IMG/VR virus record: IMGVR_UViG_3300035182_001904
Origin: a virus
Strand: one strand, 5' to 3'
Length of the DNA stretch: 64,000 nucleotides
The position numbers were made by a program, and so were the translations under genes. The notes under the pieces are model-generated. The model had not been told where the DNA came from. It did not search any database and worked only from the letters and a program-made list of their open reading frames with translations. Below are positions 12,187 to 64,000 of the stretch, piece after piece; the first letter of the stretch is position 1; the number at the start of each line of letters is the position of its first letter.

Positions 12187-12630
12187 ATGACCACCTGTTG
12201 GAACGGAACCGCGTCCCTCTTCGAGAAGCAGCTCCTGTTGCCGCTTCCGTCCTACCCGCTCGAGCAACTGCGGCAGCGGTTCTTGTATGCCGTCGTGGAT
12301 CCGAACGACCTGAAGAAAGGCGCACGGATCGTCTTTCAGATGGCCTTCGAGACCGAACTCAGCGCGGTGCTGAACAAACTGATCACGCTTCCTGCAGACG
12401 TTCCTGAGTCGAACGTGTGTGAGCGTCGTCGCTTTCTTGACATCGATGGAAGCATGCGTTTGCAGCGCTACTTGATCGGGCCCGCAATCGATGCGCTCGG
12501 TGAGGTCCCCGCTATTCCACAGTCTTATGTCGAATTGATCCGGCTCTACGCAATGGCGCCATATCCTCGATACCGTACGTGCGCGTTGGCCGCGACCGTG
12601 TGTCTCGCAACCCAGATGTTGATCGCATGA
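12187..12630 (+). CDS. hypothetical protein in baseplate cluster
   Basis: ORF track; ATGA overlap with the hub gene. Confidence 0.55.
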   Translation: MTTCWNGTASLFEKQLLLPLPSYPLEQLRQRFLYAVVDPNDLKKGARIVFQMAFETELSAVLNKLITLPADVPESNVCERRRFLDIDGSMRLQRYLIGPAIDALGEVPAIPQSYVELIRLYAMAPYPRYRTCALAATVCLATQMLIA

Positions 12631-27900: not shown

Positions 27901-28191
27901 TTACCGCGCAATCCAGCGTGACTCAATAGCGATGCACTGGAGACAGGTCAGGCAATCCTGCAGGTCCGTTTCGCGAATCTCGTCCGAGGCTGCGTGCCCG
28001 AACTCGATGTCCGTTTCAGCGCGTTCCCCGGACATGAAGCGCTCGGCAGCGTTGCACGACATCAGCAACGTGAAAGGCGGGTAGTACTCCGACGCCTTGT
28101 CGTCTTCCATGCGATGGACGAGGCCGTGTTCGTCTCGCCAACGGAACCGTTTGTCGTCTATGCGTGCCACTCGCACGCGCCATTGGCGCAC
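27901..28191 (-). CDS. small His/Cys protein
   Basis: WRDEHGLVH...TCLQC motif; start uncertain. Confidence 0.5.
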   Translation of the reverse strand: MRQWRVRVARIDDKRFRWRDEHGLVHRMEDDKASEYYPPFTLLMSCNAAERFMSGERAETDIEFGHAASDEIRETDLQDCLTCLQCIAIESRWIAR

Positions 28192-31100
28192 GCGGCCTCG
28201 CCCGTCAGGTTCGTGCCGTCCTCGGCCTCGAACACCGAGAGGTAGTCGATCGGCTTGTAGCCGGCGATCAGCTCGTTCCAGCGCCGCTCCTGTGCCTCCG
28301 TCTTCACCGCCTCGAATGGCGCGAACGCGTAGACCATGTCGCCCGAGTCTGGCAGGAGCGACACGCCGGTGAAGTTGTCACGGTGGTCCCACAGGTAGTC
28401 CGCGACGGTGACCCACTCCGTCGGACGAACGGAGATCGTGTTCGAGACGTTGTGCGAGAGGCCCGGCATGTGGCTCGGCCGTGTCGCGCCCGGCATCACC
28501 CAGTGCTGTTGGGTGGACCGCACCATGTTCATGAATTCCTCGGCGGTCAGGTCTTCCTTGAGCACCGCACCCTCGGGAGCCTCGACGGGGAACTCGATGA
28601 CCCACTTGCCGTCGGGCTTCTTCACGCACATGTGCGGGTTCGCGGTCTGGAACGCCTGGAACACGACCTCCAGCTCGTCGGCGGTGACGCGGCGGATGTA
28701 GCGACGCGCGTGGTGCGGGTGGATGCCCGAGCCCACGTTGCCCAGCTCGAGGGACGTCGTGCCCGACGGCTTCACGCACGTGGTGCGCGCGGCCTGGTTG
28801 ATGCCGATCATCGCGGCGTACTCCGCGTTCCACGCGACGACCTTGCCTGCGATGGCGCGTTGGTAGTCGGGGTTGCACGCGATGTGCGGTGCGTCCTGCA
28901 TCCCCGTCATCCCGATGCCGAGTAGCGCATCACGCCGAACGATCGCCTCGGTGACCTTGCCCAGGAACGGCATGTCCGTGTACGTCGCCTGCATCGTACC
29001 GATGAGCGCGGCGGCCCACGCGGCCTCGGAGAAGTCCTCGTACGAGGTGAGCTTGGCGGCGTTGATCTCGCAGAGATTGCACATCGCCCAGCCGGTGCTG
29101 GTGGTGCCGTCCTCGTTGAGGAGAAGTGGGTCGAGTCCGATCTCGGCACACGGGTTGGTCACGTGGTTGTAGTCCGAGACGAACAGGACGCCGGGCTCGC
29201 CGTAGTTCTTGGTCATCCCGAAGATGCGCTTGAACTGCTTCTCCTTGACCTCGTCACGCTTGAGCACGACGGAGTTGTTGGCGTTGGCGAGCCACGGCTC
29301 CTTCGAGTACCAGTCACGATCCGACTTGGCGTACATCAGTTCGCTGTCCTCGAGTGAGAACAGACAGATCATCGCGGAGCGCCGGATGCCGCCCGAGAGC
29401 ACCGCATCGGCGGCATGGCACAGAACGCGATGGCACTCGATCGGACGGAGCTTGCGTCCCTGTGCGCTGTGGAGCACGCCACGGATGCGCTCGAGCGCAA
29501 GCTTGAGCTTGCGGTGCCCGGGGGCGCGGCCGCCGCTGGTCTTGAGCGCAGCCCCTGCGGCACGGATCTGGTGATAGGCGAACTCGACGTGGTAGCCACG
29601 GGTGTAGCCGTTGACGAGCGCGTCGAGTGCGCCTGCCCAGCCCTCGATCGTGTCCTCGATCACGTGGTGAACGACCAACGTCTCGTCGATGTCCGCGAGT
29701 GGCGGGAGCTTGTCGACGTGCTCGAACTGCACGGAATAGCCGACGCCACAGCCGGACAGGAGCAGGAACATCGCCTCGGCGAACGCGCGCGGCCGATCGA
29801 TCAGAGTCGCGGAACAGTTGCCTGTAACAACCCCGTTATCGAGCACGAACGAATGGTCGTCCTCGACTTCGAGACACCAGACGACCTCTTCAGCGTCGGG
29901 CTCGATCGACTTCACCTTGTAGGTCGCGGGCCCGGCAACCCCGAAATTAAACGTCAACCCAAACATCGACGTCGTTGGACGCGTACCATAGTTGGTAGTC
30001 TGGCCGGTCAAGTCACGCTCGCGTGTTATATACGCGCCCACCGTCGGAAACACAGTCCGGATGAAGGAAATCGCGGCTTCGTTGCTGGTCTGGATACCGT
30101 CGAATGGAGACAAGTGTGTCTCGTCTTTGTTCGCGTTCGCGTTCTTGTGACCATCCGCGTCGAGATACCCACGGACAAACGCGGCCACGTTCGCGTGTCC
30201 GTCCGTCTCGAGCGTGGGGAGTGTTTTGAGGTACTTTCCCGTGTAAGCCATTGCGTCACCGTTGCAAGACGGTGGACGGCTGATTTTGAATCCTAGTTCC
30301 TCAAAGCGAGCGACAAAACGGCCGTCGTCTCCACAGAGGCGGACCATCGAGTACGTATACTGCCCTTCGCGGTTCTTGACGCACGTACCGTCGCCATACA
30401 CGTACCCCATTGCCCAGTACCAGCGCTCTTCGGGGTTCGCGTCCTCGTAACGCCACGCGCCAACGATAGTTGGAGGGCGGGCCAGAACCTGTCCGACCTG
30501 AAGTTCACGGGTCCGTTCTCCGCCGGAGAGCACCCATTGGTGATTACGTGTTGCGCGAACGGTCTGTGTCCCGCTGCCGCGCTGCAGCTCTACTTTGTAG
30601 AGTTGTTGTTTGCCGTAGCTAAACACCTTCGCCGGCTTCCAATTGCCGGCGTGCGTGAGCACCGTGACACGGTCACCGTGCTCGAAATCTGAAAACCGAC
30701 GGACGCCTGTGCTCGTGATGAACGCAGTGTCTTCGCTAAGACAGTTGTAGATGCGGTTGTGATTCGCCTCGATCGCCTTGCCGCCGAACTGCATCGAGCG
30801 CATCGACGGAAGCACCTTTTTCTCGCGCACCAGATCGTGAGCGCGCTTGATGAGCGGGAGCAGTTCAGGGATGTGCGCGAAGCGGCGCAGGTGCATGCCC
30901 TCCACACGGTCGACCGTCTCGTCGTAGACCTCGCGGCGCTGGATCTCGGGGACGTAGCGCGCGTACTTGCTTGCGTGGATGTAGTCGCTGACAGCCGAGG
31001 CGTCGGGCTTCCTGCGAACCGTGCGCGCCTCGGTCCGCTTCTGACGGTAGATGATGAACGCCTTGGCGACCTTGAACTGCTTGGCACGCATGAGCGCGAC

Positions 31101-31340
31101 TTCGACCGCGTCTTGGATTTGTTCGACGTCCGCGACGTCAGCACGCAGCGTCGCGGAGACGAACGTAGCAACGCGATGAAGACCCTCCTCATCGACAGCG
31201 CCCTCGGCCTCGATCCATGCCTTGCGTACCGCGCTCTCGATCTTCCCGACGTCAAACGGCTGTGTGGTCTGCCCATCACGCTTGCGAACAGTTACTGGTT
31301 GAACGACAGGAAGGTTGAACGGGGCGTCGGCAGATTGCAC
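28158..31340 (-). CDS. nrdJ: class II (B12-dependent, RTPR-like) ribonucleotide reductase with ATP cone and intein
   Basis: ATP cone VRKRDG, PSMRSMQFGG, GCGVGYSV, GGIRRSA, TNPCAEI, CNLCEIN, KPSGT and C-terminal CANGAC; AAGGAG Shine-Dalgarno. Confidence 0.92.
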   Translation of the reverse strand: MQSADAPFNLPVVQPVTVRKRDGQTTQPFDVGKIESAVRKAWIEAEGAVDEEGLHRVATFVSATLRADVADVEQIQDAVEVALMRAKQFKVAKAFIIYRQKRTEARTVRRKPDASAVSDYIHASKYARYVPEIQRREVYDETVDRVEGMHLRRFAHIPELLPLIKRAHDLVREKKVLPSMRSMQFGGKAIEANHNRIYNCLSEDTAFITSTGVRRFSDFEHGDRVTVLTHAGNWKPAKVFSYGKQQLYKVELQRGSGTQTVRATRNHQWVLSGGERTRELQVGQVLARPPTIVGAWRYEDANPEERWYWAMGYVYGDGTCVKNREGQYTYSMVRLCGDDGRFVARFEELGFKISRPPSCNGDAMAYTGKYLKTLPTLETDGHANVAAFVRGYLDADGHKNANANKDETHLSPFDGIQTSNEAAISFIRTVFPTVGAYITRERDLTGQTTNYGTRPTTSMFGLTFNFGVAGPATYKVKSIEPDAEEVVWCLEVEDDHSFVLDNGVVTGNCSATLIDRPRAFAEAMFLLLSGCGVGYSVQFEHVDKLPPLADIDETLVVHHVIEDTIEGWAGALDALVNGYTRGYHVEFAYHQIRAAGAALKTSGGRAPGHRKLKLALERIRGVLHSAQGRKLRPIECHRVLCHAADAVLSGGIRRSAMICLFSLEDSELMYAKSDRDWYSKEPWLANANNSVVLKRDEVKEKQFKRIFGMTKNYGEPGVLFVSDYNHVTNPCAEIGLDPLLLNEDGTTSTGWAMCNLCEINAAKLTSYEDFSEAAWAAALIGTMQATYTDMPFLGKVTEAIVRRDALLGIGMTGMQDAPHIACNPDYQRAIAGKVVAWNAEYAAMIGINQAARTTCVKPSGTTSLELGNVGSGIHPHHARRYIRRVTADELEVVFQAFQTANPHMCVKKPDGKWVIEFPVEAPEGAVLKEDLTAEEFMNMVRSTQQHWVMPGATRPSHMPGLSHNVSNTISVRPTEWVTVADYLWDHRDNFTGVSLLPDSGDMVYAFAPFEAVKTEAQERRWNELIAGYKPIDYLSVFEAEDGTNLTGEAACANGACEWHA
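29817..30743 (-). mobile_element. 309-aa intein with LAGLIDADG homing endonuclease in nrdJ
   Basis: Begins CLSEDT, block B ATRNHQW, GYVYGDG and GYLDADG, ends VVTGN with +1 Cys; more AT-rich than the extein. Confidence 0.92.
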
Positions 31341-39663: not shown

Positions 39664-41277
39664 ATGTCGGAAGAGGTTTATCGTTCAACCATCGCGCAGG
39701 GGATGTTCTACGTCGACGGCAAGCCTTTGTCGCTCGAGGACTACCCGATGTTTGGCGCGGTGTACGACGGCAAGTACCCGCGCCTGCTCTTGAAGACGGG
39801 ACGACAGGTCACCAAGTCGACCACGCTCGCCGCCTTCATGATCGCGGAGGCCGTCGCGACCCCGAACTTCAAGTCCTACTACGTCTCGCCGACGCAGGAA
39901 CAGACTCGTAAGTTCTCGCACACCCGCGTCGCCAAGATTCTCGCCTACAGCCCAGACCTTCGGAAGGGTTTCGTCAACGCGAACTCCATTGACAACGTGC
40001 TCCTGCGAATGTTCAGGAACGGGTCCGAGATGGCGTTCACGTATGCGCTCGATGACCCTGATCGCGCACGCGGGTACTCCGCTGATCGTTGCAATTTCGA
40101 CGAGGTGCAAGACATTCTCTACGAGTCGGTCATTCCCGTCATCGAGGAATGTATGGCCAACTCGAGCTATCAGTATTCGGCCTACGCTGGAACGCCCAAG
40201 ACGATGGAGAACACCATCGAATTCTTGTGGTCCCAGTCATCACAGACCGAATGGTGCATGCGCTGCAAAGCATGCAACAAGTGGACGTTCATCGATAGCG
40301 TGAAGGGGTTGGGCAAGCTGGGCCCTGTCTGTATTGGCTGTGGTACGTACCTCGATCCGCGTAAGGGTCAGTGGGTCGACATGTCCAAGGACAAGGCGGC
40401 CGGCATCAAAGGTTTTCACATCTCGCAGGCCATCATGCCTGTCAACGTACCTGCGTCCTGGCAGCCCGGAACGTCAGGGTACGAAGCCGCAATCGAACGC
40501 TGGAACAAGCTGCTCTACAAGATGGACTCGCCCCTCTACGGCGAGTCGCGCTTCCTGAACGAGTGCATCGGCGTCAGCACGTCGACAGGCGTGCGTCTCT
40601 TGACCAAGGAGATCCTCGAGGCGCTCTGTGATGAGAAGCACGAGATGACACGTCTGCCGCTGCCGTTGTCGAAGGAAGGCATCGTGCGCACGGTTGCCGG
40701 CGTCGACTGGTCTGGCGGTGGCGCTGAGATCAAGGGCAGCGAGGGCATGTTCAAGTCGCGCACGGTGCTCCACATCTGGGGCCAGCAAGCCGATGGACGG
40801 CTCAAGACGCTCTTCTACAAGATCTTCCCCAACGGCCACGCGATCGGGTGGGTCGAGGAGATCGTCGAGCTGTGCAACGCCTGGGCAGTCCAGATGGTGG
40901 TGGGCGACGCCGGCGAAGGCGCCATCGGCAACTCGTTCTTGCGCGCGAAGCTCGGCGACCACCGCGTCACCTCCATTCGATACATGGCGCTGTCCAAGCC
41001 CTACGAGTGGAACCCGAACGGCATGGTCTACAACGCCGACCGCACCACGATGATCGACAACTTCGCACGGCAGCTCCTGCACAAGCAGCTGATCTACCCG
41101 ATGCTGAAACAGGCCCAGCCTGCCATCAACGACATCCTCAACGTCTACGAGGAAGTCACGATGCAAGGACGCAAGGTGTGGCGCCACTCTCCGACGATGC
41201 CCGATGACTGCCTGCATGCACAGCTGTTCGGCTGGTTCGCGTGGATCATCCTGACGCAGAACTACAAGTTCTTGTGA
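39664..41277 (+). CDS. terL: terminase large subunit (GpA-like)
   Basis: KTGRQVTKSTT, DRARGYSADRCNFDEVQD, Zn knuckle CKAC...CIGC, AGVDWSGG and DDCLHA. Confidence 0.85.
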   Translation: MSEEVYRSTIAQGMFYVDGKPLSLEDYPMFGAVYDGKYPRLLLKTGRQVTKSTTLAAFMIAEAVATPNFKSYYVSPTQEQTRKFSHTRVAKILAYSPDLRKGFVNANSIDNVLLRMFRNGSEMAFTYALDDPDRARGYSADRCNFDEVQDILYESVIPVIEECMANSSYQYSAYAGTPKTMENTIEFLWSQSSQTEWCMRCKACNKWTFIDSVKGLGKLGPVCIGCGTYLDPRKGQWVDMSKDKAAGIKGFHISQAIMPVNVPASWQPGTSGYEAAIERWNKLLYKMDSPLYGESRFLNECIGVSTSTGVRLLTKEILEALCDEKHEMTRLPLPLSKEGIVRTVAGVDWSGGGAEIKGSEGMFKSRTVLHIWGQQADGRLKTLFYKIFPNGHAIGWVEEIVELCNAWAVQMVVGDAGEGAIGNSFLRAKLGDHRVTSIRYMALSKPYEWNPNGMVYNADRTTMIDNFARQLLHKQLIYPMLKQAQPAINDILNVYEEVTMQGRKVWRHSPTMPDDCLHAQLFGWFAWIILTQNYKFL

Positions 41278-50966: not shown

Positions 50967-51758
50967 ATGGTGATTCCTCAGGCTCGGACCGCTTCGACGT
51001 ACTACGCGGAAGTTGCGCGGATGCCGTTGGTGGACGATCCCGCGGAAGAGCGCCGCCTGTTGCAACGCTGGCAACAGCGCAAGGACGTCAAGGCGCGCAA
51101 CGCCATCGTGCAGACGCATCTCCGGTTCGTCGTCAAGCTGGCTCACAAACGCAGCAAGGATCCCGAGGCGGTCAAGGACTTCATCGCCGCCGGGAACCTC
51201 GGGCTTCTCAAGGCCACCGACAAGTTCGACTGGGCTCGCAAGCCGTACATCCGCTTCCTGACGTACGCCGGTTGGTGGGTCTACGAAGAGATGTCGAACC
51301 AGGACTACACAACGGCGACGCTCGTGCACGTCCCCGCCCACCGCCAGAAGGCGCAGCGCCGGAACGCACGCGAGTATCGCGCGGCAGTGCAAGAGCACGG
51401 ACCGGACAACGCGGACGTGCAGGCGATGAACCCGGGATTGTCCGAGAGCATCGTCATGCCGATCGAAGCGGCGCGCTACACGCCGGACATCTCCGACACG
51501 GAGCCGACCTCCACCTATGGGTCGGACCGCTTGCGTGCGCTCGTGCGTGAGGGCATCAGCCGCCTGCCCTCACGAGAGCAGACAGTGCTCAACCTCTTCT
51601 ATGGTGTCAAAGACGACCCGCGGAACCTGGTCCAGATCGCTTCCATCATGGGCATGTGCCCCGAGCGCGTCCGTCAGATCAAGCTCAGCGGGATGCAGCT
51701 CCTGCACAACGAGCTGAAGCAGCGTGTCGGCCTGTCGACTGAAGACGCGTACCTCTAG
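50967..51758 (+). CDS. sigma70-family factor (RpoH/RpoS-like layout)
   Basis: Region 1.2 YYAEVARMPL, region 2 HLRFVV...GNLGLLKATDKFD...RFLTYAGWW and region 4 LPSREQTV...CPERVRQI. Start at ATG 50967. Confidence 0.9.
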   Translation: MVIPQARTASTYYAEVARMPLVDDPAEERRLLQRWQQRKDVKARNAIVQTHLRFVVKLAHKRSKDPEAVKDFIAAGNLGLLKATDKFDWARKPYIRFLTYAGWWVYEEMSNQDYTTATLVHVPAHRQKAQRRNAREYRAAVQEHGPDNADVQAMNPGLSESIVMPIEAARYTPDISDTEPTSTYGSDRLRALVREGISRLPSREQTVLNLFYGVKDDPRNLVQIASIMGMCPERVRQIKLSGMQLLHNELKQRVGLSTEDAYL

Positions 51759-55113: not shown

Positions 55114-55502
55114 CGCTTTCCTCCTGGGAAGTCAAGGGACTCCCCTTCCATGAGTTGACGTTCGGGTGTCGGAAACTTGCCTGGGTTGGTCGCGGCTGCT
55201 TTGGCGGAGGCCCGCAGGATTGCATCCATGTCGACAGGCGCCTGGCCTCCATCAACAACAGCGAGTGCGGGCGGTGCCGCCGCCGACTCTTGTCGCGCGT
55301 ACTCGTCGAGGGTGGTTACACCGCTCGAGGTGATCACCGGCGATGACGACGGCACATCATCGCGCGTCACCTCGACCGACACGACCGCCTTGTTCTTGGA
55401 GAACTTGATGTCGTCCTCCGAGGCTGAAATGCCTTGTTGGGCCAAGTCCTGTTTGATCAGGCGCGTGATGTCGGACGCCTCGTACGTGACTACAATCTTC
55501 AT
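55110..55502 (-). CDS. hypothetical protein
   Basis: ORF track; ATGA overlaps. Confidence 0.65.
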   Translation of the reverse strand: MKIVVTYEASDITRLIKQDLAQQGISASEDDIKFSKNKAVVSVEVTRDDVPSSSPVITSSGVTTLDEYARQESAAAPPALAVVDGGQAPVDMDAILRASAKAAATNPGKFPTPERQLMEGESLDFPGGKR

Positions 55503-57484
55503 TTGGCCCTCTCAGGTAGCATGGGCAAGGCATACGCCTTGATGACGGGGCGGTCCACCTTCTTGGGGTGGATGCACCCTAGCTGAAAGGGTTCAATCCC
55601 CTTCGCAAGACATATGATGTTTTTCGGACATAGCGCGCATTCAATCTTGTTCGTGAGCATCGAATCGACATCGATTTTGTGATCGAGCAAATGGGCTACC
55701 GCCAGCTCAAGCGTTCCCTGCCCGATCATCCTGTACACGGTAACCTTGTCGTTCTGTCCAATCCGATAGTTTCGGTCCAAGCATTGCGAGTACGAATTCA
55801 GCGAATACGGCAACGAGCTGTAGATCATGTACGTCGCCGAATTCAACGTGATGCCGAGGCCTGTGGTGACTTGGCCGATGTAGACGCGGACGGCAGGGGC
55901 GTCGTTGAACGCGTCGACGGAGGCCATCGGGTCTCGTGAACCGCCATCGACCCGTACGTACCCAATCTCTTCGGCGTTCAACCGCTCCTCGATCAGGTCC
56001 ATCTCAATGTGAAACGCGCACCAGATGATCACCTTGTGGTGCGGCGTTTCAAGAATCCCGTCGAGCAGCTCCATGATCGATTCGAGCTTGGGGTGCTCGT
56101 CAAACGTGATGGTCGTGGAGGGCCATGGCGTCGCGTCAACCAGGCACCGTGGGGTGCGTGGTTGAATCTGCCGCGCGACACAGGCGTCACGGTGTTCACA
56201 CGGCAAGCCTCCCCGGGCCGAGTCGCAGTAGAAGGGATCCTTCTCGCTCTTGATGAGGAAGCCTGACGTGATCTGCAAAAGCTTCATCAAGGCCGCCGCT
56301 CGGTGCGGCATCTCGATGGCAGAAAGTTGGTGCGGGAGAATGGGCTTCGCACCAATCTCCCCGGACCGAATCTGGATCCCTAGCTTACCCAGCACCTCGG
56401 GGTCGATGCCCATGTCGATGACGATCTTGTCGTACGCAACGGTCTGAGCGCGTGTAAGGGTATACTCTACGTCCACAAAGGAGCGTGTTGGCAGGTCCAA
56501 GCACTGCTCTTTGGTACGACGGATCGACAAGAAGGTCGTACGTGCATTGATGACGTCGAGATTCTTGTAACCAACCACGATAGGAGAGTTGGCGCCTCGC
56601 GTGACAACGAACGTTTTTTTGTACTTCCAGTACGTCTCGGGCATGAAGCAGTCGCCCAGGATTTTGTAGGGGCCGTACAGGTCGAGAGGATTCCCCTCGG
56701 TGGGGGACCCCGTCATGAGGATGCGGCGCATCGCCTTCTGTGCGATCTCATGCGTCGTCTTGGTGCGCTCGGACTGCCAGGTCTTCACGCCATGGCTTTC
56801 ATCGCAGACCAGAACGCCGTAAGGCAGCCGTTCTACGAGGAAATCCACTAAACTTCTCGCAGTGTCGTACGTCGAAAGAACCATGTCGGTGCCCTCGGCG
56901 GCAGCGCGTTCGATGATCTCGCGCTTCTGCTTGGGCGTTCCGACCAGCGCGGCCCACGTGAGCTGGCGGCCCGAGTGAAGGTCGATCTGCCGACCCCAGT
57001 TCCGCACGGTGACGCGCGGCCCGAGCACCAGGGCCGTGGCGCGGTTGCCGGTGTGGCGCAACAAACGCAGGAGATCGATCGCGATCTTCGACTTGCCGAG
57101 ACCAGGATCGTAGAACAACGCCGCCCGCATGTTGTAGAACACGTGGCAGAGTCCTTCAACCTGATGCTGGTATGGCGCCGTGACGTATTCAAATCCCGTG
57201 GGCAAGGTCAGCGCTTCCAAGCGTCGGCGCACATCCTCGAGCGCCTCGATGTGGCGTTGGGCCACGTCCGAGATCACCACGTCAACGTCGGAAGCCACTG
57301 CTTGAAGGTCCGCGATGACCTTGCTGGATGCAGGGAAGAACGCGGGGTACATCCACAAGGCCCGCGAAGCGTCCCATGTAGCGCCAAACACGCGACTGTA
57401 CGTAGCATTCTGTCCGTGAACCAGAAACACGGGCGTGCCGTTGCCCGCGCGTCCGACGCGGATCTCCATTCGGGGTCGACCCAT
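55499..57484 (-). CDS. SNF2-family helicase
   Basis: DPGLGKS, CDESH, MTGSP, GLGITLNSA and DRNYRIGQ. Confidence 0.9.
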   Translation of the reverse strand: MGRPRMEIRVGRAGNGTPVFLVHGQNATYSRVFGATWDASRALWMYPAFFPASSKVIADLQAVASDVDVVISDVAQRHIEALEDVRRRLEALTLPTGFEYVTAPYQHQVEGLCHVFYNMRAALFYDPGLGKSKIAIDLLRLLRHTGNRATALVLGPRVTVRNWGRQIDLHSGRQLTWAALVGTPKQKREIIERAAAEGTDMVLSTYDTARSLVDFLVERLPYGVLVCDESHGVKTWQSERTKTTHEIAQKAMRRILMTGSPTEGNPLDLYGPYKILGDCFMPETYWKYKKTFVVTRGANSPIVVGYKNLDVINARTTFLSIRRTKEQCLDLPTRSFVDVEYTLTRAQTVAYDKIVIDMGIDPEVLGKLGIQIRSGEIGAKPILPHQLSAIEMPHRAAALMKLLQITSGFLIKSEKDPFYCDSARGGLPCEHRDACVARQIQPRTPRCLVDATPWPSTTITFDEHPKLESIMELLDGILETPHHKVIIWCAFHIEMDLIEERLNAEEIGYVRVDGGSRDPMASVDAFNDAPAVRVYIGQVTTGLGITLNSATYMIYSSLPYSLNSYSQCLDRNYRIGQNDKVTVYRMIGQGTLELAVAHLLDHKIDVDSMLTNKIECALCPKNIICLAKGIEPFQLGCIHPKKVDRPVIKAYALPMLPERAK

Positions 57485-57527
57485 AGGGCGTCCGCCTTTC
57501 TATCATGTGATGATTGCGGGGTAAACC

Positions 57528-59318
57528 ATGGCCACTGATGGAATGTTCGACCCGGGTATCTCCGACCTGTCGACGCAAAACACGTCGTCGCACGGAAGTC
57601 CGCTCTTCGATTTCCTCACGGCGTTCGCGCCACGGAAGCTCAAGGACCTCTTCCGACTGTGCGAGTACCTCTACTTCAACAGCGCGCAGATCTACGCCGC
57701 GCTCCAGAAGTTCTGCACGTACCCCGTCACCGACATCATCTACGAGACGCAGAACGAGGCGCTCAAGAACTACTACGAGGACCTCCACGACAAGACGCTG
57801 AAGACGAAGCGCGTCTTGATCCGCGCGGCCGTCGACAAGTTCGTTTACGGCAACGCGTTCTTCTCGATGTACGCGCCGTTCGTGCGCTTCCTGAAGTGTC
57901 CGCGCTGCCAGTCGCTGACGAACATCCACCAGGTCACCTACAAGTTCAACCTGAAGAAGCTCGCCTTCAACTACGCATGCAAAGGCTGCAACGTGAAGGT
58001 GGACATCGGTGAGAAGGACGTCATCGACCGCAAGATCACACGCAAGGACCGCATCTCGGTGATCCGTTGGGACCCGAAGTTGATGGACATCGACTACAAC
58101 CCCATCACCGGGCACAGCGAGTACTACTACACGATCCCCAAGGAGATTAAGGAACGCTGCGCCAAGGGGAACAAGCACCTCATCGACACGATGCCGATGG
58201 AGTTTTTGAAGACGATTCGCTCGGACAAGATCTTCAAGTTCGCGGAAGGTCAAGTCTTCCACATGCGCATGGACGCGCCCGCGGGCATCGAGGCTCAATG
58301 GGGCTTCCCGCCGCTCGCATCGACGATCAAGCTGTTCTTCTACGCGGCGGTGCTGCGCAAGGCGAACGAAGCGATCGCGCTCGACTACATCGTCCCGCTG
58401 CGCATCATCTCGCCGAAGCAGTCGTCGGCGAACGCCGATCCGATGACCACCATCTCGTTGGCCAAGTGGTCCGACGAGATGAAGACCAGCGTCAAGAAGT
58501 GGCGGCGAGATCCCCTCCACATCATGTGGTCACCGATCCCCGCGGAGGTCACGCACCTTGGTGGCCAAGCCCGTGCGCTCATGACGCTCGGCGAGGTCCA
58601 GGCTGCCGAAGACAACATCATCGCTGCAATGGGCCTGCCCAAGGAGTTCATCTACGGCGGCTTCTCTGCGATGGGCTCGGGCATCCAGCTTCGCGTGCTC
58701 GAGAACCAGCTCGTTCACCAAACGGGTGACCTCAACGACCTCCTGCAGTGGGTCACAGACAAGTCGGCCAAGCAGCTGGGGCGTGGCACGGTGACGTGTT
58801 CGCTCGCACCCTTCCGCTTCATCGATGACGTTCAGCAGAAGGCGCTGCTCCTGCAGCTCAACGGCGCCGACCCTTCGACGGGCCCGTGGATCTCCAAGCG
58901 GACCATGGGCGAGGCGTTCGACATCGACCCGTCCGACGAGCGCAAGTGGCGCATGCAGGAAGCAATCGACGACGCGCGAACTGCACAGGAGCTGCAGGTC
59001 GAGATGCAGAAGCGTCAGAACAATCTGGGCTCACAGGCACGAGCCCAAGCGCAGATGGGTCAGCAGGGTCTCTCCTACGACCAGCAGGCGGTGATCGCGC
59101 AGGCAGATCAGGTGATCCAGCAGCTGATGGGCCTGGACCCCGGGAGCCGGCAATCGCAGATGCACGCGCTGCAGACCGAGGACATGGTGATGTACGCGGT
59201 CGTCAAGGAACGCATGCATGACCAGACCACTCAGCAGAACCAACAGGCGATCGCGGCAGCCCGTCAAGGCGGCGATCCTTCCGGCGGTGGCGCACCACCC
59301 GCAGCGCCAGGTATGTAA
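57528..59318 (+). CDS. putative portal protein
   Basis: About 600 aa helical protein with the portal-like sequence AALQKFCTYP...YGNAF, WGFPPL, IIAAMGLPKEFI and a Gln-rich tail; inferred without a search. Confidence 0.55.
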   Translation: MATDGMFDPGISDLSTQNTSSHGSPLFDFLTAFAPRKLKDLFRLCEYLYFNSAQIYAALQKFCTYPVTDIIYETQNEALKNYYEDLHDKTLKTKRVLIRAAVDKFVYGNAFFSMYAPFVRFLKCPRCQSLTNIHQVTYKFNLKKLAFNYACKGCNVKVDIGEKDVIDRKITRKDRISVIRWDPKLMDIDYNPITGHSEYYYTIPKEIKERCAKGNKHLIDTMPMEFLKTIRSDKIFKFAEGQVFHMRMDAPAGIEAQWGFPPLASTIKLFFYAAVLRKANEAIALDYIVPLRIISPKQSSANADPMTTISLAKWSDEMKTSVKKWRRDPLHIMWSPIPAEVTHLGGQARALMTLGEVQAAEDNIIAAMGLPKEFIYGGFSAMGSGIQLRVLENQLVHQTGDLNDLLQWVTDKSAKQLGRGTVTCSLAPFRFIDDVQQKALLLQLNGADPSTGPWISKRTMGEAFDIDPSDERKWRMQEAIDDARTAQELQVEMQKRQNNLGSQARAQAQMGQQGLSYDQQAVIAQADQVIQQLMGLDPGSRQSQMHALQTEDMVMYAVVKERMHDQTTQQNQQAIAAARQGGDPSGGGAPPAAPGM

Positions 59319-59326
59319 GATAACCC

Positions 59327-59710
59327 ATGCCGCAAGACTCAGAAGACTTCGCCGACGTCATCGAAAAGGCCCAGAAGGTCAGCAACGACCTGGGCAGCTT
59401 GTTCGGTGCGCAGAACGGACCGGGGCGTGTTGCGTTCGAACAGCGCGGCAACCGCGGCGGCCCCGAGCTGGACTACGAAGCCCACTCCGAGGTCTTCGCG
59501 CTGCCCGCGGATCGCGACAGCTACGAAGACGTCATGAACCAGGTGCTGCGTGGCGAAGCCATCATGCGCTACGAGGACCGGACCTTCTCGAAAGAGGGCG
59601 ACTTCCTGGTGGCCTTGGTCTACCTGACGCCCCGTGCACGTCCAGCTCCCGTGAACAACCAAGACGCAGGCGACGCCGAACCTGCTGAACGACCGCGACG
59701 GCTGCCCTAA
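59327..59710 (+). CDS. hypothetical protein
   Basis: ORF track; TAAGAT 5 nt before the ATG. Confidence 0.65.
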   Translation: MPQDSEDFADVIEKAQKVSNDLGSLFGAQNGPGRVAFEQRGNRGGPELDYEAHSEVFALPADRDSYEDVMNQVLRGEAIMRYEDRTFSKEGDFLVALVYLTPRARPAPVNNQDAGDAEPAERPRRLP

Positions 59711-59727
59711 CGGAGCCTTGTACCAAA

Positions 59728-62700
59728 ATGCTGCCAAATCTACGACCGATACTCGAGGACGCGGCAACGCGGCGCGAGATGATCCGCAAGAAGGTCGTCG
59801 AAGGCCTCGAGCAGTCGTTCCCGCTCAAGGCCGGCAAGCACACGGTCGAGGTATCGAACGTGCGCGTCGACCCGCAGGACTACTCGTCCCGGGACCAGAA
59901 GCGTGCCGTGCTCGAAGGCAAGACCTTGTCGGAACGTGTGCGCGGTGACGTCACCGTCAAGGACGCGGCGGGCGGCGTAGTCAACCACGCCAAGGACTTC
60001 ACGCTGCTGCAACTGCCGTACTTCACGCCACGGCACACCTTCATCCTCGATGGCACGGAGTACTCCGTCTCGAACCAGCTGAGGACGAAGCCAGGCGCGT
60101 ACGTACGTCGCCGTGGCAACGACGAGCTGGAGGCGACGTTCAACCTGTCGAAGGGCGCGAACTTCCGCGTGTCGATGGAGCCCGAGAAGGGTCTCCTCTA
60201 CATGCAGCCATCGCACACGACCACGAAGATCCCGCTGCATCCAATCCTCCGCGCGCTTGGGATGCCTCACCAGGACATCGCGGCGAGCTGGGGCCCTGAG
60301 ATCGCGGGCATGAATCGCGACGCTTGGAAGAACCCGGACAAGCACGTCAGCAAGCTCTACGAGACGCTCGTGCATCCGGCCAAGCAGACCGCGACCACGA
60401 CGGAAGAGAAATCCCGCGTGCTGCGCGAGTACTTCGACCAGACCTCGATGGACCCCGAGGTCACGACCCACACGCTCGGCTACCCGTACGACAAGGCGTC
60501 GGCGTCTGCAATCCTGGCGGCGTCCAAGAAGCTGCTCGACGTACACAAGGCAGCCGCCGACGTTGACGATCGGGACTCGCTGGCGTTCAAGACGTTCCAC
60601 TCGGCGGACGACTTCATCAAGGAACGCGTGCAGCTCGAGGCTCGGGCGATGCGTGCGAAGCTTGGCTGGAAGCTCGACGCGAGCCACGGGGACCTGAAGA
60701 AGGCGTTGCCGGCAGGCCCGTTCACGCGATCGATGCACGGGCTCCTGGTGGGGTCATCGCTCTCGGCAGTCCCGATGCAGATCAACCCGATGGAGTTGCT
60801 CGACGAAGCGTCACGCGTCACGATGCTCGGCGAGGGTGCGATCGCGTCCGAGCGCGCCATCCCGCTCGAGGCTCGCGACGTCCATCCGACGCACTTCGGA
60901 ATCCTTGACCCTGCAAGGACCCCAGAGTGCTACGACGCCATGACCGAGGTCTTCACGTCACGCGGGTGGAAGCGGTGGCCGGATGTCACTGCGAACGACT
61001 GGCTCGCATGTCGTGTCGATGAACGTCTCGAATTCCACCGCGCGACCAACCTCACGGCACAGCCGTATGAGGGCCTCATGTATGGCCTAGAGACGGGCAA
61101 AATCAATTACCTGGTAACGCCCAACCACCGCGTCTTGTGTAAGCCGCTCGAAACGCGCGGACTCCAACACTGGCGCATCAACCGAGCGGACGAGGTACAC
61201 GGCAAACCGCGTACATTCGACACGGGACACCTGCCGTACGTTGGGGAGAGTGTTGATACGTTTCAGCTCCCCCGGGCCGCCGGCGGCAACGCGGTAAAGA
61301 ATGTTGGCCCGATTGCCATGACGGACTGGGCGTCCTTTATGGGATGGTATCTGTCCGAAGGGTGTTTCAACTTCACCGAAAAAACATTCACGTATCACGT
61401 CCTGATCTCACAGGACGTGAAAAAGAATCCACAAAACTGCGAGATTATCGAAGCACTGCTCCGGCGTATGCCGTTTGCATGGTCACAACGCGGGGGTGAC
61501 ACGTATGTCATCGGCGTTAAGCAGCTAGCGGCATATGTGCAGCAGTTCGGGCACGCGGGGGATAAATACATCCCGGAATACTTTTTTCAGGCGTCGTACG
61601 AAGTACGAGAGAATCTATTCGAAGCTCTCCTGTTGGGAGACGGTCGAAGGTGTAAGGTTCCGTTGCCAGGTGCAACACACGACCGAAATGTACTCTGTAC
61701 TACCAGCGCACGCTTGGCCGTCGATTTTGACCGCCTCGCGATTTCCCTGGGACGCCCAACACGCACCGCGCGCTACGTCGACAAGCGTGAAGAGCGGTAT
61801 CTGGACACGTACGAAGTACGTCCGTTGAAACAACGTTTTCGACAATCGCGGACACGTGAGGAGCAGCGGGGCTACTACACCGAGCACTATCGCGGCAACG
61901 TGTACTGCGCTGAAGTCCCCGGGGGACTGTTGTACGTGCGGCGGAACGGCAGCGTCCCGATTTGGTCGGGCAACTCGTTCAAGGTCGGCGTCGACCTTCG
62001 TGCCACGATCGGTGCGCGGCGCGACGACAAGGGCAACCTCTACGCGCCGGTCTACGACGTCGCTGCGAAGAAGTCGACGTACCTCAAGGCCGGTGACATG
62101 GCGAAGTCGATCATCGCGTTCCCTGGTGAACACCTGGGACCGGGGAAGATCGTCGATGCGATGGCGCATGGCGTCGTATCGCGCGTGTCGTCGGATCGCG
62201 TGACCCACCAACTGGAGCATGTCGCAGACCAGTATGGGCCCACGTCGAACCTCCTGCCGCTGCTCTACGGCATCCAGGCGAACCGCGTGCTCATGGCGAG
62301 CAAGCACCAGGGCCAAGCACTGCCGTTGACGCATCGTGAGGCGCCGCTCGTCCAGGTTGCATCGTGGAAGCCAGGGACGTCGGTCGAACGGGAGATGGTC
62401 AAGCTGATCGTCCCGACCGCACGACAGGCCGGCACGATCACGAAGATCGATGACGACTGGATCCACATCGAGCCGGACGCGAAGACGGCCGCGCTCACGA
62501 CGAAGCTCCACTACGACACCAACCTTCCGCTCGCCGCCAAGACGATGCTGCACAACACGCTGACCGTGAAGGTCGGCGACCGTGTCGAGAAGGACCAGCT
62601 CCTCGCTGACTCGAACTTCACCAAGGACGGCACGCTCGCGTTGGGCACGAACCTGCGGGTGGCATACATGCCGTACCGCGGCCTCAACACCAACGACGGC

Positions 62701-64000
62701 ATCGTCGTCTCGCAGGGCGCAGCGGACAAGCTGACGAGCGAACACATGTACCAGCACGCGCTTTCGCGTGAAGGGGACGTGCAGCTCGGACGTGAGAAGC
62801 ACCGGACCTACTTCGGCAGCCGCTACACCAAGGACCAGTACGACAAGCTCGACGAAGACGGCGTTGTCAAGCCGGGGGTCACTCTTCACAAGGGCGACCT
62901 GATCGCTGCGGGCATCCGCGAGAACAAGGTGACGGGTGACGCACTCCTGCTGGGTAAGCTGTCCAAGTCGCTGGTCAAGCCCTACGAAGAAGTGGTCGAG
63001 ACTTGGACGCACGATCGACCCGGCATTGTCGTAGACGTGGCGAAGACCGCCCGACAGGCAGCTGCGTCGATCCGCACCCAGGAGACACTGCAGATCGGCG
63101 ACAAGCTGTGCAACCGCTTTGGCAACAAAGGCGTGATCGCGAAGATCATCCCTGACCACCAGATGATCCAGGATGCGCAGGGGCGCCCTGTCGATCTTCT
63201 CTTCACGTCGGCGGGTATCGTCTCGCGCATCAACCCAGCGCAGGTCATCGAGACGGTGCTTGGAAAGGTTGCCGAAAAGACGGGTAAGCCGATCGTCATC
63301 CCGCAATACATGCCAGGCCGTGACAACGTCGCCTTCGCAAAGAAGTTGCTCGAGGAACACGGTCTCTCGGACAAAGAGACGGTCCTTGACCCTATCACGG
63401 GCAAGAAGGTTCCCGACGTGTTGGTCGGCAAGAGCTACATCCTGAAGCTCTTCAAGACCACAGATTCCAACTGGGCAGCGCACGGCGCCGAGAAGTACGA
63501 CTACAACCAACAACCGGCGCGTGGTGGTGACGAAGGTGCCAAGGGCATCGGCAAGATGGAATTCGATGGACTCGTCGCGCACAACGCACGCAACGTGCTG
63601 CGTGAAGCGGCGTCCATCAAGAGCCAGCGCAACGACGAGTTCTGGCGCGCGATCCAACTCGGGCTGCCGACGCCTTCGCCCAAGACGCCATTCGCCTACG
63701 ACAAGCTGCAGAGCATGCTCACGGGCGCCGGCGTCAAGGTGACGAAGACCGGCTCACGCTTGGCGCTTGGTCCGCTCACCGACGCGGACGTCAAGTCGAT
63801 GTCCTCAGGAGCGCTCAAGGACCCGAGCAAGTTGATCCGCGCGAAGGACCTACGCCCCGAGACCGATGGCCTCTTCGACCCAGGGATCACCGGCGGCATG
63901 TCGGGCACGAAGTGGTCGCACGTCGACCTGCACGAGCCGATCGTCAACCCCGTGTTTGAGGAACCCGTGCGACGCCTTCTCGGACTGACACAGAAGGAGT
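59728..64000 (+). CDS. phage multi-subunit RNA polymerase beta subunit (with intein) fused to beta-prime N-terminus; 3'-truncated
   Basis: Hand-translated without a stop to the window end. Beta motifs: TFILDGTEY..NQL..PG, RDVHPTHFG..P..TPE, ANR.LM, ALGTNLRVAYMPY.G.NTND, GDKL.NR.GNKG and SRINP. Beta-prime motifs follow: RPETDGLF and SHVDL.EP. Confidence 0.92.
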   Translation, partial: MLPNLRPILEDAATRREMIRKKVVEGLEQSFPLKAGKHTVEVSNVRVDPQDYSSRDQKRAVLEGKTLSERVRGDVTVKDAAGGVVNHAKDFTLLQLPYFTPRHTFILDGTEYSVSNQLRTKPGAYVRRRGNDELEATFNLSKGANFRVSMEPEKGLLYMQPSHTTTKIPLHPILRALGMPHQDIAASWGPEIAGMNRDAWKNPDKHVSKLYETLVHPAKQTATTTEEKSRVLREYFDQTSMDPEVTTHTLGYPYDKASASAILAASKKLLDVHKAAADVDDRDSLAFKTFHSADDFIKERVQLEARAMRAKLGWKLDASHGDLKKALPAGPFTRSMHGLLVGSSLSAVPMQINPMELLDEASRVTMLGEGAIASERAIPLEARDVHPTHFGILDPARTPECYDAMTEVFTSRGWKRWPDVTANDWLACRVDERLEFHRATNLTAQPYEGLMYGLETGKINYLVTPNHRVLCKPLETRGLQHWRINRADEVHGKPRTFDTGHLPYVGESVDTFQLPRAAGGNAVKNVGPIAMTDWASFMGWYLSEGCFNFTEKTFTYHVLISQDVKKNPQNCEIIEALLRRMPFAWSQRGGDTYVIGVKQLAAYVQQFGHAGDKYIPEYFFQASYEVRENLFEALLLGDGRRCKVPLPGATHDRNVLCTTSARLAVDFDRLAISLGRPTRTARYVDKREERYLDTYEVRPLKQRFRQSRTREEQRGYYTEHYRGNVYCAEVPGGLLYVRRNGSVPIWSGNSFKVGVDLRATIGARRDDKGNLYAPVYDVAAKKSTYLKAGDMAKSIIAFPGEHLGPGKIVDAMAHGVVSRVSSDRVTHQLEHVADQYGPTSNLLPLLYGIQANRVLMASKHQGQALPLTHREAPLVQVASWKPGTSVEREMVKLIVPTARQAGTITKIDDDWIHIEPDAKTAALTTKLHYDTNLPLAAKTMLHNTLTVKVGDRVEKDQLLADSNFTKDGTLALGTNLRVAYMPYRGLNTNDGIVVSQGAADKLTSEHMYQHALSREGDVQLGREKHRTYFGSRYTKDQYDKLDEDGVVKPGVTLHKGDLIAAGIRENKVTGDALLLGKLSKSLVKPYEEVVETWTHDRPGIVVDVAKTARQAAASIRTQETLQIGDKLCNRFGNKGVIAKIIPDHQMIQDAQGRPVDLLFTSAGIVSRINPAQVIETVLGKVAEKTGKPIVIPQYMPGRDNVAFAKKLLEEHGLSDKETVLDPITGKKVPDVLVGKSYILKLFKTTDSNWAAHGAEKYDYNQQPARGGDEGAKGIGKMEFDGLVAHNARNVLREAASIKSQRNDEFWRAIQLGLPTPSPKTPFAYDKLQSMLTGAGVKVTKTGSRLALGPLTDADVKSMSSGALKDPSKLIRAKDLRPETDGLFDPGITGGMSGTKWSHVDLHEPIVNPVFEEPVRRLLGLTQKE
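60928..61974 (+). mobile_element. 349-aa intein with LAGLIDADG endonuclease in RNAP beta
   Basis: Begins CYDAMTEV, block B VTPNHRV, GWYLSEG and LLLGDG, ends VYC...WSGN with +1 Ser. Confidence 0.92.

Follow-up and report, generated by a model that had tools for sequence, protein, structure and literature searches.

The stop-free frame beginning at position 59,728 is the first of two genes that together specify the catalytic core of a bacterial type RNA polymerase (RNAP) encoded by the phage. To our explanation as a whole, inferred steps included, we assign a probability of roughly 0.78. In brief, the gene encodes an unsplit beta subunit that carries an intein and is fused to the N-terminal half of beta-prime, and a second gene encodes the C-terminal half of beta-prime. 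The enzyme adds a new member to the RNAP-encoding Caudovirales lineage reported before (PMC7481178; for phage Arash, PMC10585845, as far as its text was available), to which an earlier sequence-only reading had already pointed. It is a real and previously reported kind of enzyme, with a predicted polymerase activity.

The window, the whole stretch of 64,000 nucleotides that was analysed, corresponds to positions 10464-74463 of a 137.5 kb phage contig, an IMG/VR virus record that is 74% complete. The phage is uncultured, originates from sediment or mat metagenomes and has a GC content of 61%. The contig encodes a large terminase subunit and is therefore derived from a tailed phage. The coordinates of the features in the window are given in Table 1.

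Table 1. Features of the window that are discussed in the text
Feature	Position	Strand	Evidence
Sigma-A, divergent sigma70 family, 250 aa	16246..16998	+	Sigma70_r3 26.7 bits; phrog_351; Arash gp10 orthologue
Large terminase subunit	39664..41277	+	Pfam GpA_ATPase and Terminase_6N; Arash gp1, E 7e-74
Sigma-B, sigma70 family, regions 2 and 4, 263 aa (ATG 50967) or 245 aa (ATG 51021)	50967..51758	+	Arash gp196 orthologue
SNF2/Rad25-type helicase, 661 aa, divergent from the portal-RNAP block	55499..57484	-	PHROG 62
Portal protein, 596 aa, directly upstream	57528..59318	+	29% identity, E 4e-94 to Arash gp204
Conserved gene of 127 aa, located between portal and RNAP	59327..59710	+	Found at this place in related contigs too
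Beta-coding portion of the RNAP fusion (aa 1 to ~1342, intein included)	59728..63753	+	Pfam; alignment to E. coli rpoB
Predicted LAGLIDADG intein, 349 aa (aa 401-749)	60928..61974	+	Absent from intein-less homologues; invariant motifs; fold matches
Beta active-site residues N989-D990, K1126, K1134, R1167	62692..63228	+	Alignment to E. coli rpoB
First stretch of the beta-prime N-half in the fusion (window covers aa ~1343-1424)	63754..64000	+	Pfam; alignment to E. coli rpoC; goes on to contig position 75599

The fused gene and the separate beta-prime C-half

An ORF scan allowing open ends gave an ATG-started frame that is stop-free to the end of the window (1424 codons), in agreement with the more than 1420 codons noted previously. 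In the whole contig the frame encodes 1802 aa and ends with two tandem stops. The frame had been described as invisible in the ORF track, which is correct; the default list omits it because it runs off the window.

The sequence-only reading took the frame to encode beta alone. This was not borne out, as the order of Pfam domains and the alignments to rpoB and rpoC identify a beta fused to the N-terminal half of beta-prime. Rpb2_2, Rpb2_3 and Rpb2_6 (beta) are followed in one chain by Rpb1_1 and Rpb1_2 (beta-prime). Rpb2_6 (hybrid-binding/DPBB, E 2e-45) and Rpb2_3 (fork, E 7e-7) score above Pfam's cut-off, while the Rpb2_2 and Rpb1_1 matches fall under it. The end of the beta part, VKVTKTG, aligns with the C-terminus of E. 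coli beta. Without the intein the beta part comprises approximately 993 aa, and the estimate of a compact beta of about 990 aa was thus accurate.

The equivalents of E. coli D814, K1065, K1073 and R1106 are D990, K1126, K1134 and R1167, all kept as claimed and invariant in 17 family members with identities down to 34%. The rpoB alignment also confirms the divergence from NFED to NTND (E813 to N989) and from KMHAR to NWAAH (H1237 to A1250), and these changes could alter function. The rifampicin pocket carries the equivalents of D516M, H526E and S531T, which suggests that the polymerase would be insensitive to rifampicin.

The final ~80 codons inside the window already belong to beta-prime. This N-half of approximately 460 aa is joined to beta without a linker and contains the magnesium site, NADYDGD, at aa 1707-1713. 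Here D1709, D1711 and D1713 are invariant in the family down to 34% identity, and the chain stops about 90 aa beyond the motif. Both here and in Arash the N-half has lost the four-Cys zinc-binding domain that cellular beta-prime carries, with ~35 residues reduced to ~5; this loss, too, could alter function. The C-half of beta-prime is encoded by a separate gene of 593 aa, located 2.5 kb downstream of the fused gene, and matches Rpb1_5 (Pfam) and solved beta-prime chains (E 1e-36). It aligns to the bridge helix and trigger loop of E. coli rpoC, including the trigger loop His, and to the second zinc site (C814/C888/C895/C898 in E. coli). The trigger loop is without SI3, and the C-terminal module is present. 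The catalytic part of beta-prime, which was to be sought beyond the window, is accordingly found on the contig in the form of the NADYDGD motif and this separate C-half. The outcome named beforehand as refuting the polymerase, a genome in which beta-prime is missing, thus did not occur. The N-terminus of the C-half lies ~10-15 residues from the start of cyanobacterial RpoC2, and the same end residue was observed in all 193 complete split-form homologues.

A single RNAP set was found in the contig. The sequence-only reading proposed to extend the search to alpha and omega substitutes, but none were recognised in the 74% complete contig by the RNA_pol_L and Rpb6 profiles, which matched the controls in 14 of 14 genomes. 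The missing part of the contig could still encode another polymerase or partners that resemble alpha or omega, and the phage RNAP may use host subunits.

A predicted intein in the fork domain

The insertion in the beta part is predicted to be a class 1 type intein with a LAGLIDADG homing endonuclease, capable of both splicing and homing. It is located between TPE and S in the fork domain, which corresponds to the position between E565 and G566 of E. coli beta (TPE and G). A metagenomic homologue that is 98% identical lacks the intein to the residue (TPE-SFKVG), and in DNA the insert is absent to the base. The intein-less homologues compared were P0002, P0005, P0010 and Arash. The candidate splice residues are Cys1 (C401), a block B TPNH at intein residues 64-67, and a terminal WSGN that ends at the N749-S750 junction. 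Two LAGLIDADG dodecapeptide motifs, GWYLSEG and LLLGDG, include the acidic residues E144 and D238. Seven homologous inteins share C1, T64-H67, E144, D238 and N349 without exception. It should be mentioned that every member, whichever of two insertion sites it occupies, has Gly rather than the block G His as its penultimate residue; this could alter function. The GC3 of the intein is 0.67 vs 0.83 in the host gene. Searches of the intein sequence against Pfam and PDB gave no match. The fold of the intein model, which is of modest quality (pLDDT 60.6), matched TliVMA, PI-TkoII, PI-SceI and I-DmoI, with intein endonucleases at E 7e-8.

LAGLIDADG inteins are known from the second-largest RNAP subunits of eukaryotes and their viruses. 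There they occupy those cleft-facing motifs of the fork and hybrid-binding domains that are conserved best, and splicing must precede assembly (Goodwin et al. 2006, PMC1635734). The phage intein resembles these in being a LAGLIDADG intein in a conserved RNAP motif. It differs in that its host protein is a bacterial type beta in a phage, in that its sequence is too divergent for Pfam and PDB, and in its penultimate Gly.

Phage context, relatives and origin of the split

The placement of the RNAP gene behind a portal gene on the late strand, as first proposed, is supported by the similarity to the Arash portal and by a tail sheath and a baseplate hub on the same strand. The portal protein had no match in PHROG or Pfam; Arash gp204 is annotated as portal and was detected in virions according to the available part of the Arash paper (PMC10585845). 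The 127-aa gene likewise had no family match in PHROG or Pfam. The helicase orthologues match SNF2-rel_dom and Helicase_C, and the helicase is a homologue of Arash gp198c. The order helicase, portal, small gene, beta-beta-prime-N and, after intervening genes, beta-prime-C is common to two independent metagenome contigs and Arash.

Among cultured phages, Salmonella phage Arash and the Vibrio phages D69 and D181 are the closest, with 35% identity and a shared gene order and architecture. For Arash gp206 this identity extends over the full length. From what was available of the Arash data, gp206/gp216 (OQ632216; PMC10585845) form the same arrangement as in D69, D181, D148 and the present phage, that is, a beta-beta-prime-N fusion with the same end residue. 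These Arash-type phages also have the separate beta-prime-C of ~600 aa and the helicase, portal, small gene and polymerase in order. Arash further resembles the present phage in its two sigma70-family genes, both of which have orthologues in the window, and in its large, myovirus-type genome of ~180 kb. Unlike the present phage, Arash is without an intein and has opposite-strand genes between its two polymerase genes, and D181 and D148 have a group I intron in the polymerase gene instead of an intein. The sections of the Arash record and paper that were accessible call the chains simply beta and beta-prime, and the fusion is undiscussed there (PMC10585845). The sequence-only reading knew of no biochemical characterisation of the lineage. 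The lineage is not wholly uncharacterised, since virion proteomics exist for Arash in the same partly available paper (PMC10585845).

The mReC contigs are metagenomic tailed-phage contigs whose beta and beta-prime can be aligned to the cellular COG0085/COG0086 models and branch separately from the cellular sequences (Weinheimer and Aylward 2020, PMC7481178). The present contig is similar to these in combining terminase, portal and tail genes with both beta and beta-prime, and it fits their habitat range and genome sizes. In the text of PMC7481178, 'fused' and 'fusion' are used for crAssphage only, and 'sigma', 'intein' and 'split' are absent. We found no description of the fused and split architecture with its many selfish-element insertions in the literature searched.

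The family is bacterial type and not phiKZ-type, judging from sequence; phiKZ-type sequences are far more divergent (YerA41, 23% identity over part of the query). The statement that the gene is not split in the phiKZ/AR9 manner is right for beta, which is unsplit, but not for beta-prime, which is split after the catalytic barrel as in phiKZ-type enzymes and rpoC1/rpoC2. The phiKZ/AR9 enzymes are likewise phage two-barrel polymerases in which no alpha or omega was found, one version is packaged in virions, and a SNF2-type helicase is encoded nearby. They differ in that beta is also split (into two or three chains) and in having two paralogous sets and no sigma70 homologue, whereas the present phage has one set, two sigmas and an unsplit, fused beta.

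Natural rpoB-rpoC fusions occur in Helicobacter and Wolbachia, where the C-terminus of beta is joined directly to the N-terminus of beta-prime. In cyanobacteria and plastids beta-prime is split as rpoC1/rpoC2. The phage fusion resembles the former and its beta-prime break the latter. Cellular fusions retain the zinc-binding domain, alpha and omega, and we know of no cellular enzyme with both the fusion and the split.

Beta-beta-prime fusions were found in more than 150 metagenomic clusters, and some metagenomic relatives encode both subunits in a single chain of ~2040 aa. A tree was built from a sample biased to best matches, with E. coli as its root and its single, very long cellular outgroup (branch length 1.77). 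In this tree the split forms constitute one clade (support 1.0, 102 tips) that is nested within the fully fused forms. Fission of a one-chain beta-beta-prime enzyme, which persists in sister lineages, is therefore the most likely origin of the two-chain form.

Sigma factors, virion packaging and alternative explanations

Two sigma70-family genes are present in the window, as had been noted. Private promoter motifs had also been claimed, but a k-mer scan revealed no shared or private motif. The Sigma-A match to Sigma70_r3 (region 3) is above cut-off, and its matches to phrog_351 and Arash gp10 have E values of 1.1e-10 and 1.5e-35, respectively. A complex prediction of Sigma-A with beta-prime-N scored 0.59 vs 0.01 for the best control, with a contact agreement between runs of at least 58% and a partner pLDDT of at least 67. 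The mark that it passed is also reached by 58 of 80 complexes with solved structures and by 2 of 110 mismatched pairs, and scores up to 0.60 comprise only 7 of the 80 solved complexes plus both passing mismatches. Since the sigma-clamp contact with beta-prime is a textbook example among solved structures, the pass may reflect likeness or memory only, and the prediction is a weak indication that the phage sigma may bind the phage core.

In our working model the intein would splice itself out after translation to give a 1453-aa beta-beta-prime-N chain, which would pair with beta-prime-C into a compact two-chain core of ~2050 aa. One or the other phage sigma would guide this core to phage promoters, and transcription may be largely host-independent. 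By analogy with Arash, the core and Sigma-A may be packed in the capsid, injected and used for transcription of early genes, with Sigma-B taking over later; we give this part slightly better than even odds. In the portions of the Arash proteomics that were covered, gp206 ranks first among the virion proteins by number of spectra and has 100% coverage, gp216 and the sigma gp10 were detected too, and gp196 is absent from the virion table (PMC10585845).

The polymerase could also be real and unpackaged, made after infection for middle or late genes only, with early genes transcribed by a host polymerase that one of the phage sigmas could redirect. This would agree with a gene that lies among late structural genes, and in RNAP-less phages the phage sigmas usually act on the host polymerase (PMC7824862; PMC13282480). 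The Arash authors themselves, in the text available, allow that proteins abundant during infection could be carried over into virion preparations (PMC10585845). However, genes of packaged proteins are typically late genes as well, Sigma-A is encoded within a baseplate/M23-peptidase structural block, and the Arash orthologue is the top-ranking virion protein by spectra and was detected together with beta-prime-C and one sigma. We regard an unpackaged polymerase as unlikely. A phiKZ-like, sigma-independent polymerase, with both sigmas just reprogramming the host polymerase, is in our opinion a little less likely again. No known phage multisubunit polymerase employs a sigma70 homologue, and the missing zinc-binding domain is an aid to promoter opening. 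Against this, sigma genes accompany the polymerase in Arash, L009, L010 and the present contig, Arash packages gp10 along with its polymerase as far as its paper was available (PMC10585845), the family is of the bacterial type, and the complex prediction, weak as it is and possibly due to memory, favours binding of Sigma-A.

Misassembled or recently captured cellular rpoB/rpoC DNA, or a decaying pseudogene, is already contradicted and has next to no probability, even though the sole homology that can be recognised is to the beta and beta-prime subunits of bacteria. Identity to any solved bacterial enzyme is ~30%, with no one phylum preferred. The fusion is shared by 120 of the 120 best matches among 5.8 billion proteins and by all of the 150 best 50% clusters, and the same neighbours are found in independent contigs and cultured phages. 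Positions 57000-64000 of the window are matched identically by a 13,057-base contig in each of four public runs, which may represent the source sample. The catalytic residues are invariant, the frame has no internal stops, and its codon bias is that of the phage, with a GC3 of 0.80-0.83 similar to the remaining phage genes.

Organization of the polymerase genes

The RNAP gene opens with an ATG and, when open-ended frames are allowed, runs stop-free for 1424 codons to the end of the window. This agrees with the sequence-only reading, which had claimed a frame of more than 1420 codons absent from the ORF track; it is missing from the default ORF list because it runs off the window. In the full contig, an IMG/VR virus record of 137,503 bases in which the window spans 10464-74463, the frame has 1802 codons, closes with two tandem stops and has a GC3 of 0.80-0.83, on par with other phage genes. 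That reading of the gene was largely right but incomplete: it took the frame as beta alone, and the last ~80 codons within the window are already beta-prime. The frame is a fusion of beta with the N-terminal half of beta-prime (beta-prime-N).

In brief, the single chain carries the Pfam domains Rpb2_2 (below cut-off), Rpb2_3, Rpb2_6, Rpb1_1 (below cut-off) and Rpb1_2, in that order. Alignment to E. coli rpoB places the equivalents of D814, K1065, K1073 and R1106, expected to be kept, at D990, K1126, K1134 and R1167, and also bears out the divergence of NFED to NTND and of KMHAR to NWAAH. In rifampicin cluster I, the positions of D516, H526 and S531 hold M, E and T. Without its intein the beta part measures about 993 aa, in line with the ~990 aa first estimated. 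Its C-terminal helix, ending in VKVTKTG (aa 1336-1342), continues directly into sequence that aligns from about residue 20 of E. coli beta-prime, and the four-Cys zinc-binding domain of beta-prime has shrunk to a few residues. The part bearing NADFDGD, which was to be sought by extending the contig, lies in the continuation of the frame itself as NADYDGD (aa 1707-1713), and the chain terminates about 90 residues beyond it.

The rest of beta-prime (beta-prime-C) is encoded by a separate gene 2.5 kb downstream of the fused gene. It contains Rpb1_5, the bridge helix, a trigger loop without SI3, a second zinc site and the C-terminal module. The protein begins no more than about 10-15 residues away from where cyanobacterial RpoC2 does, so the break in beta-prime is rpoC1/rpoC2-like. 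With NADYDGD and beta-prime-C both in the contig, the lack of a catalytic beta-prime that would have spoken against the first reading is not what we found. Judged by sequence, the polymerase is complete, consisting of beta, beta-prime-N with the catalytic motif, and beta-prime-C. The contig, which has no terminal repeat and is 74% complete according to CheckV, encodes one polymerase set, and no alpha or omega was recognisable in this 74%-complete contig.

A portal gene (29% identity, E 4e-94 to the portal of Salmonella phage Arash) lies upstream on the same strand, as the putative portal had been placed, together with a conserved 127-aa gene; an SNF2-type helicase gene upstream is divergent. 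Tail sheath and baseplate hub genes follow downstream on the same strand, and terminase, DNA polymerase, primase and exonuclease genes are found elsewhere within the window. Directly upstream of beta-prime-C, the contig has an insertion of ~0.8 kb relative to a 90%-identical metagenomic contig (L010). Apart from a tandem repeat, the insertion contains only ORFs of doubtful standing, one with a glycine zipper (GC3 0.52) and one of 145 aa that is repetitive. A 439-aa gene after beta-prime-C was considered as a counterpart of the Arash gp217 helicase and rejected.

A 13,057-base contig in each of four public sediment or microbial-mat runs is identical to window 57000-64000; the runs possibly represent the source sample and are counted as assembly support only. 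Among the sequencing runs, no RNA data set was listed. Bases 68 and 87 of the window are A and are G in the genome record, which is otherwise identical. A megablast search of window 40000-64000 against phage genomes gave zero matches. The sole match among 185,579 species genomes was a 1.9-kb contig binned in a Candidatus Sulfotelmatobacter MAG, too small for the host to be named from it.

Coordinates of the polymerase genes and other features (L001 and L007 are stretches of the same phage contig; L014 is Vibrio phage D181)
Feature	Window	Contig or other record	Strand	Remarks
Fused beta to beta-prime-N gene	from 59728	to 75599		
Intein in beta	60928-61974		+	residues 401-749, 349 aa
Beta-prime-C		78114-79895		593 aa
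Sigma-A	16246-16998			region 3, phrog_351; orthologue of Arash gp10; within baseplate/M23-peptidase block
Sigma-B	~50967-51758			regions 2 and 4; orthologue of Arash gp196
Free-standing LAGLIDADG endonuclease gene		75606-76154 (L001:5606-6151)		182 aa, single-motif; Hom_end and LAGLIDADG_3 just below cut-off
Conserved 153-aa gene		76141-76602 (L001:6141-6599)		after the polymerase gene
~0.8 kb insertion		77304-78111 (L001:7304-8111)		
42-base tandem repeat		L001:7496-7603		2.6 copies
HNH homing endonuclease		8100-8579 (L007:1171-1650)		C-terminal HTH; before window start
Weak Sigma70_r4 match		8430-8543		
M23-peptidase-domain proteins	12579-16241 and 16991-18055		+	1220 and 354 aa
Ribonucleotide reductase large subunit	28158-31340		-	ATP-cone, Ribonuc_red_lgC; Intein_splicing, LAGLIDADG_3
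Group I introns of D181		L014:7515-7795 and L014:3718-3925		RF00028, about 100 bits

Relatives, fusion and fission

The best cultured matches of the fused protein are from Arash and the Vibrio phages D69, D181 and D148, at about 35% identity over the whole chain including the junction, and the gene order is common to these phages and the phage studied here. Among 5.8 billion proteins, the best 120 matches (60-98% identity) all unite beta domains with beta-prime domains in a single chain; their contigs reach 197 kb. An exhaustive search of 50%-identity representatives gave the same picture, with all of the best 150 clusters spanning the junction; the family comprises more than 150 clusters at 50% identity. 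The suggested membership in the RNAP-encoding Caudovirales was supported: the enzyme belongs with those of the lineage described in 2020 (PMC7481178) and with that of Arash (2023). The phage, uncultured and carrying an intein, adds a new member to this group.

We collected 268 family proteins, 193 of which end at the same residue as the chain of this phage. Another 28 run through the entire beta-prime, giving one chain of ~2040 aa with Rpb1_3, Rpb1_4 and Rpb1_5, and the remainder are partial (37) or have other tails (10). One-chain enzymes of about this length (2876 aa where an intein is present) are found in sister lineages, in the metagenomic homologues P0179, P0172, P0184 and P0211. The 159-kb contig of P0179 (L015) also encodes a TubZ-like tubulin, a MoxR/VWA pair and a large glycosyltransferase.

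In a maximum-likelihood tree rooted on E. coli, the split forms, including Arash and this phage, make up one well-supported clade nested among the fully fused forms. This topology speaks for one fission event in a one-chain enzyme as the origin of the split form, with the root placed on one long E. coli branch, the only cellular sequences, and with a biased sample. A free-standing endonuclease gene starts one codon past the double stop of the fused gene, in the same frame. It has a GC3 of 0.63 and is missing from L010, so it inserted recently, and at precisely the position where beta-prime is broken; the break is a present-day landing site for a homing endonuclease. This fits, but does not show, fission by insertion of a mobile element.

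Inteins and other selfish elements

Exactly the residues of the intein in beta are lacking in a 98%-identical homologue, in other family members and in Arash, leaving the junction TPE|SFKVG, and the DNA of the intein-less allele is joined at exactly the same point. The intein opens with Cys, carries TPNH as its block B and two LAGLIDADG motifs with acidic residues, and ends in WSGN followed by Ser; these motifs are invariant across seven homologous inteins. Neither Pfam (E up to 1) nor a sequence search of the PDB gave anything meaningful, so the identification rests on boundaries, motifs and fold. The best fold matches of a modest model (pLDDT 60.6) are the intein endonucleases TliVMA, PI-TkoII, PI-SceI and PI-PfuI, and I-DmoI.

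The intein site corresponds to E565|G566 of E. coli beta, in the fork domain. RNAP inteins of eukaryotes and their viruses occupy cleft-facing, highly conserved motifs of a like kind (PMC1635734). The GC3 of the intein is 0.67, against 0.83 for the host gene, as expected if it arrived recently. No contig spanning the empty site and no variants were found among the contigs of public runs; contigs drop rare variants, so this is uninformative about intein-free genomes in the population.

Inteins are found at three sites in the family: after aa 400, as in this phage, after aa 1127 and after aa 1713. The second, one residue past the catalytic K1126 (the Lys of GDK), holds an intein of ~352 aa in P0027, P0030, P0034, P0036 and P0076; the third, directly after NADYDGD, holds one of ~514 aa in P0105 and P0112. 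P0082 has two inteins. In the phage studied here, the empty second site has Cys at +1, where Ser is usual. In about twenty relatives, a variable loop of beta is enlarged near aa 918 by roughly 80-180 inserted residues, with matches to GNAT acetyltransferases (PF00583, PF13508) in six (P0006, P0032, P0051, P0086, P0090 and P0093); this phage has only a short loop at aa ~918. Vibrio phage D181 has two group I introns. One, accompanied by a gene for a homing endonuclease, interrupts the beta to beta-prime-N gene at the conserved NR(L)MA(G)K motif (aa ~846-856), and the other is just upstream of the portal gene region. Selfish elements have invaded this essential enzyme where its motifs are most conserved, as seen from the three intein sites, the group I intron and the free-standing endonuclease. 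A second intein in the window lies in the ribonucleotide reductase large subunit.

Sigma factors, packaging and mode of transcription

The two sigma genes that had been claimed were both found in the window. The second, sigma-A, was detected only via Arash gp10, and a phmmer search gave no paralogues of sigma-B. A weak Sigma70_r4 match outside the window was rejected as a sigma, being part of an HNH endonuclease with an HTH tail. The private promoter motifs of the first reading could not be upheld: no promoter that was convincingly shared emerged from k-mer enrichment over 59 intergenic regions or from inspection of CGTTGAC and CGCTCGAGCG sites. Scanning the stretch between the two polymerase genes for the sigma70 consensus gave no promoter.

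A predicted complex of sigma-A with beta-prime-N scored 0.59 against 0.01 for the best control, with contact agreement of at least 58% and a partner pLDDT of at least 67. Of 80 solved complexes 58 attain the mark applied, as do 2 of 110 mismatches; with scores of 0.60 or below, it is passed by only seven of the solved complexes and by both mismatches. The structure of sigma bound to the beta-prime clamp is solved and textbook material, and the pass may therefore reflect likeness to such structures. The prediction lends weak support to binding of sigma-A to the beta-prime-N of the phage.

The phiKZ-type enzymes have a beta-prime split like the break seen here (PMC7824862). The claim that the gene is not split in the phiKZ/AR9 manner hence holds for beta and not for beta-prime. 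In contrast to phiKZ/AR9-type phages, this phage has a whole beta, one set and sigmas, and its enzyme is therefore not of that type. Reviews up to 2026 describe phage multisubunit polymerases without sigma homologues, and phage sigmas that serve the host enzyme (PMC7824862; PMC13282480). In the papers covered by our search, we found no description of the fused and split architecture, of the zinc-domain loss or of the inteins.

We suggest that the 1802-aa precursor would splice to a chain of 1453 aa, splicing being required because the insert sits in the cleft, and that this chain would pair with beta-prime-C. Fusion and loss of the zinc domain may take over some of what alpha and omega do in assembly, and promoter specificity would come from a phage sigma. 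The enzyme would then work as a stripped-down bacterial holoenzyme. In Arash, the orthologue of the fused gene had the top spectra count among virion proteins, the orthologues of beta-prime-C and sigma-A were also in the particles, and gp196 was not among the proteins in the portions of the virion table covered here (PMC10585845). By analogy, these data suggest, with a slight balance in favour, that the core would be injected with sigma-A for early genes and that sigma-B would act later.

Taken as a whole, the reading of a sigma70-dependent, two-chain RNAP free of alpha and omega, packaged in the capsid with its own sigma and injected, and derived from a one-chain enzyme by fission at a site targeted by homing endonucleases, is tentative; we give it a probability of roughly 0.35. 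If true, it would be the first sigma-dependent virion polymerase. The family combines a bacterial-type core with sigma70-type factors in about 2050 residues, in two chains (one in sister lineages) and apparently without alpha and omega. Reconstitution of this naturally minimal holoenzyme of bacterial type could probe the real need for alpha, omega and the beta-prime zinc domain, and the enzyme might yield an orthogonal transcription system. Its interest lies in sigma dependence, packaging and the minimal two-chain or one-chain core. The family is large, and its cultured representatives (Arash, Vibrio phages) make a direct test of the question feasible.

The conserved 153-aa gene after the polymerase gene has a HVRGIADALEQFGFKQA motif. 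We rejected HVRGIADALEQFGFKQA/AYxxG as a capsid-targeting signal of the polymerase, as the motif is absent from both polymerase chains and the sigmas. AYHRGDIAL at the end of beta-prime-N was likewise rejected as a targeting motif; E. coli has a matching stretch, and the sequence is normal for beta-prime. In the baseplate block, two M23-peptidase-domain proteins flank sigma-A, and the Arash counterpart of this region holds a virion cell-wall hydrolase.
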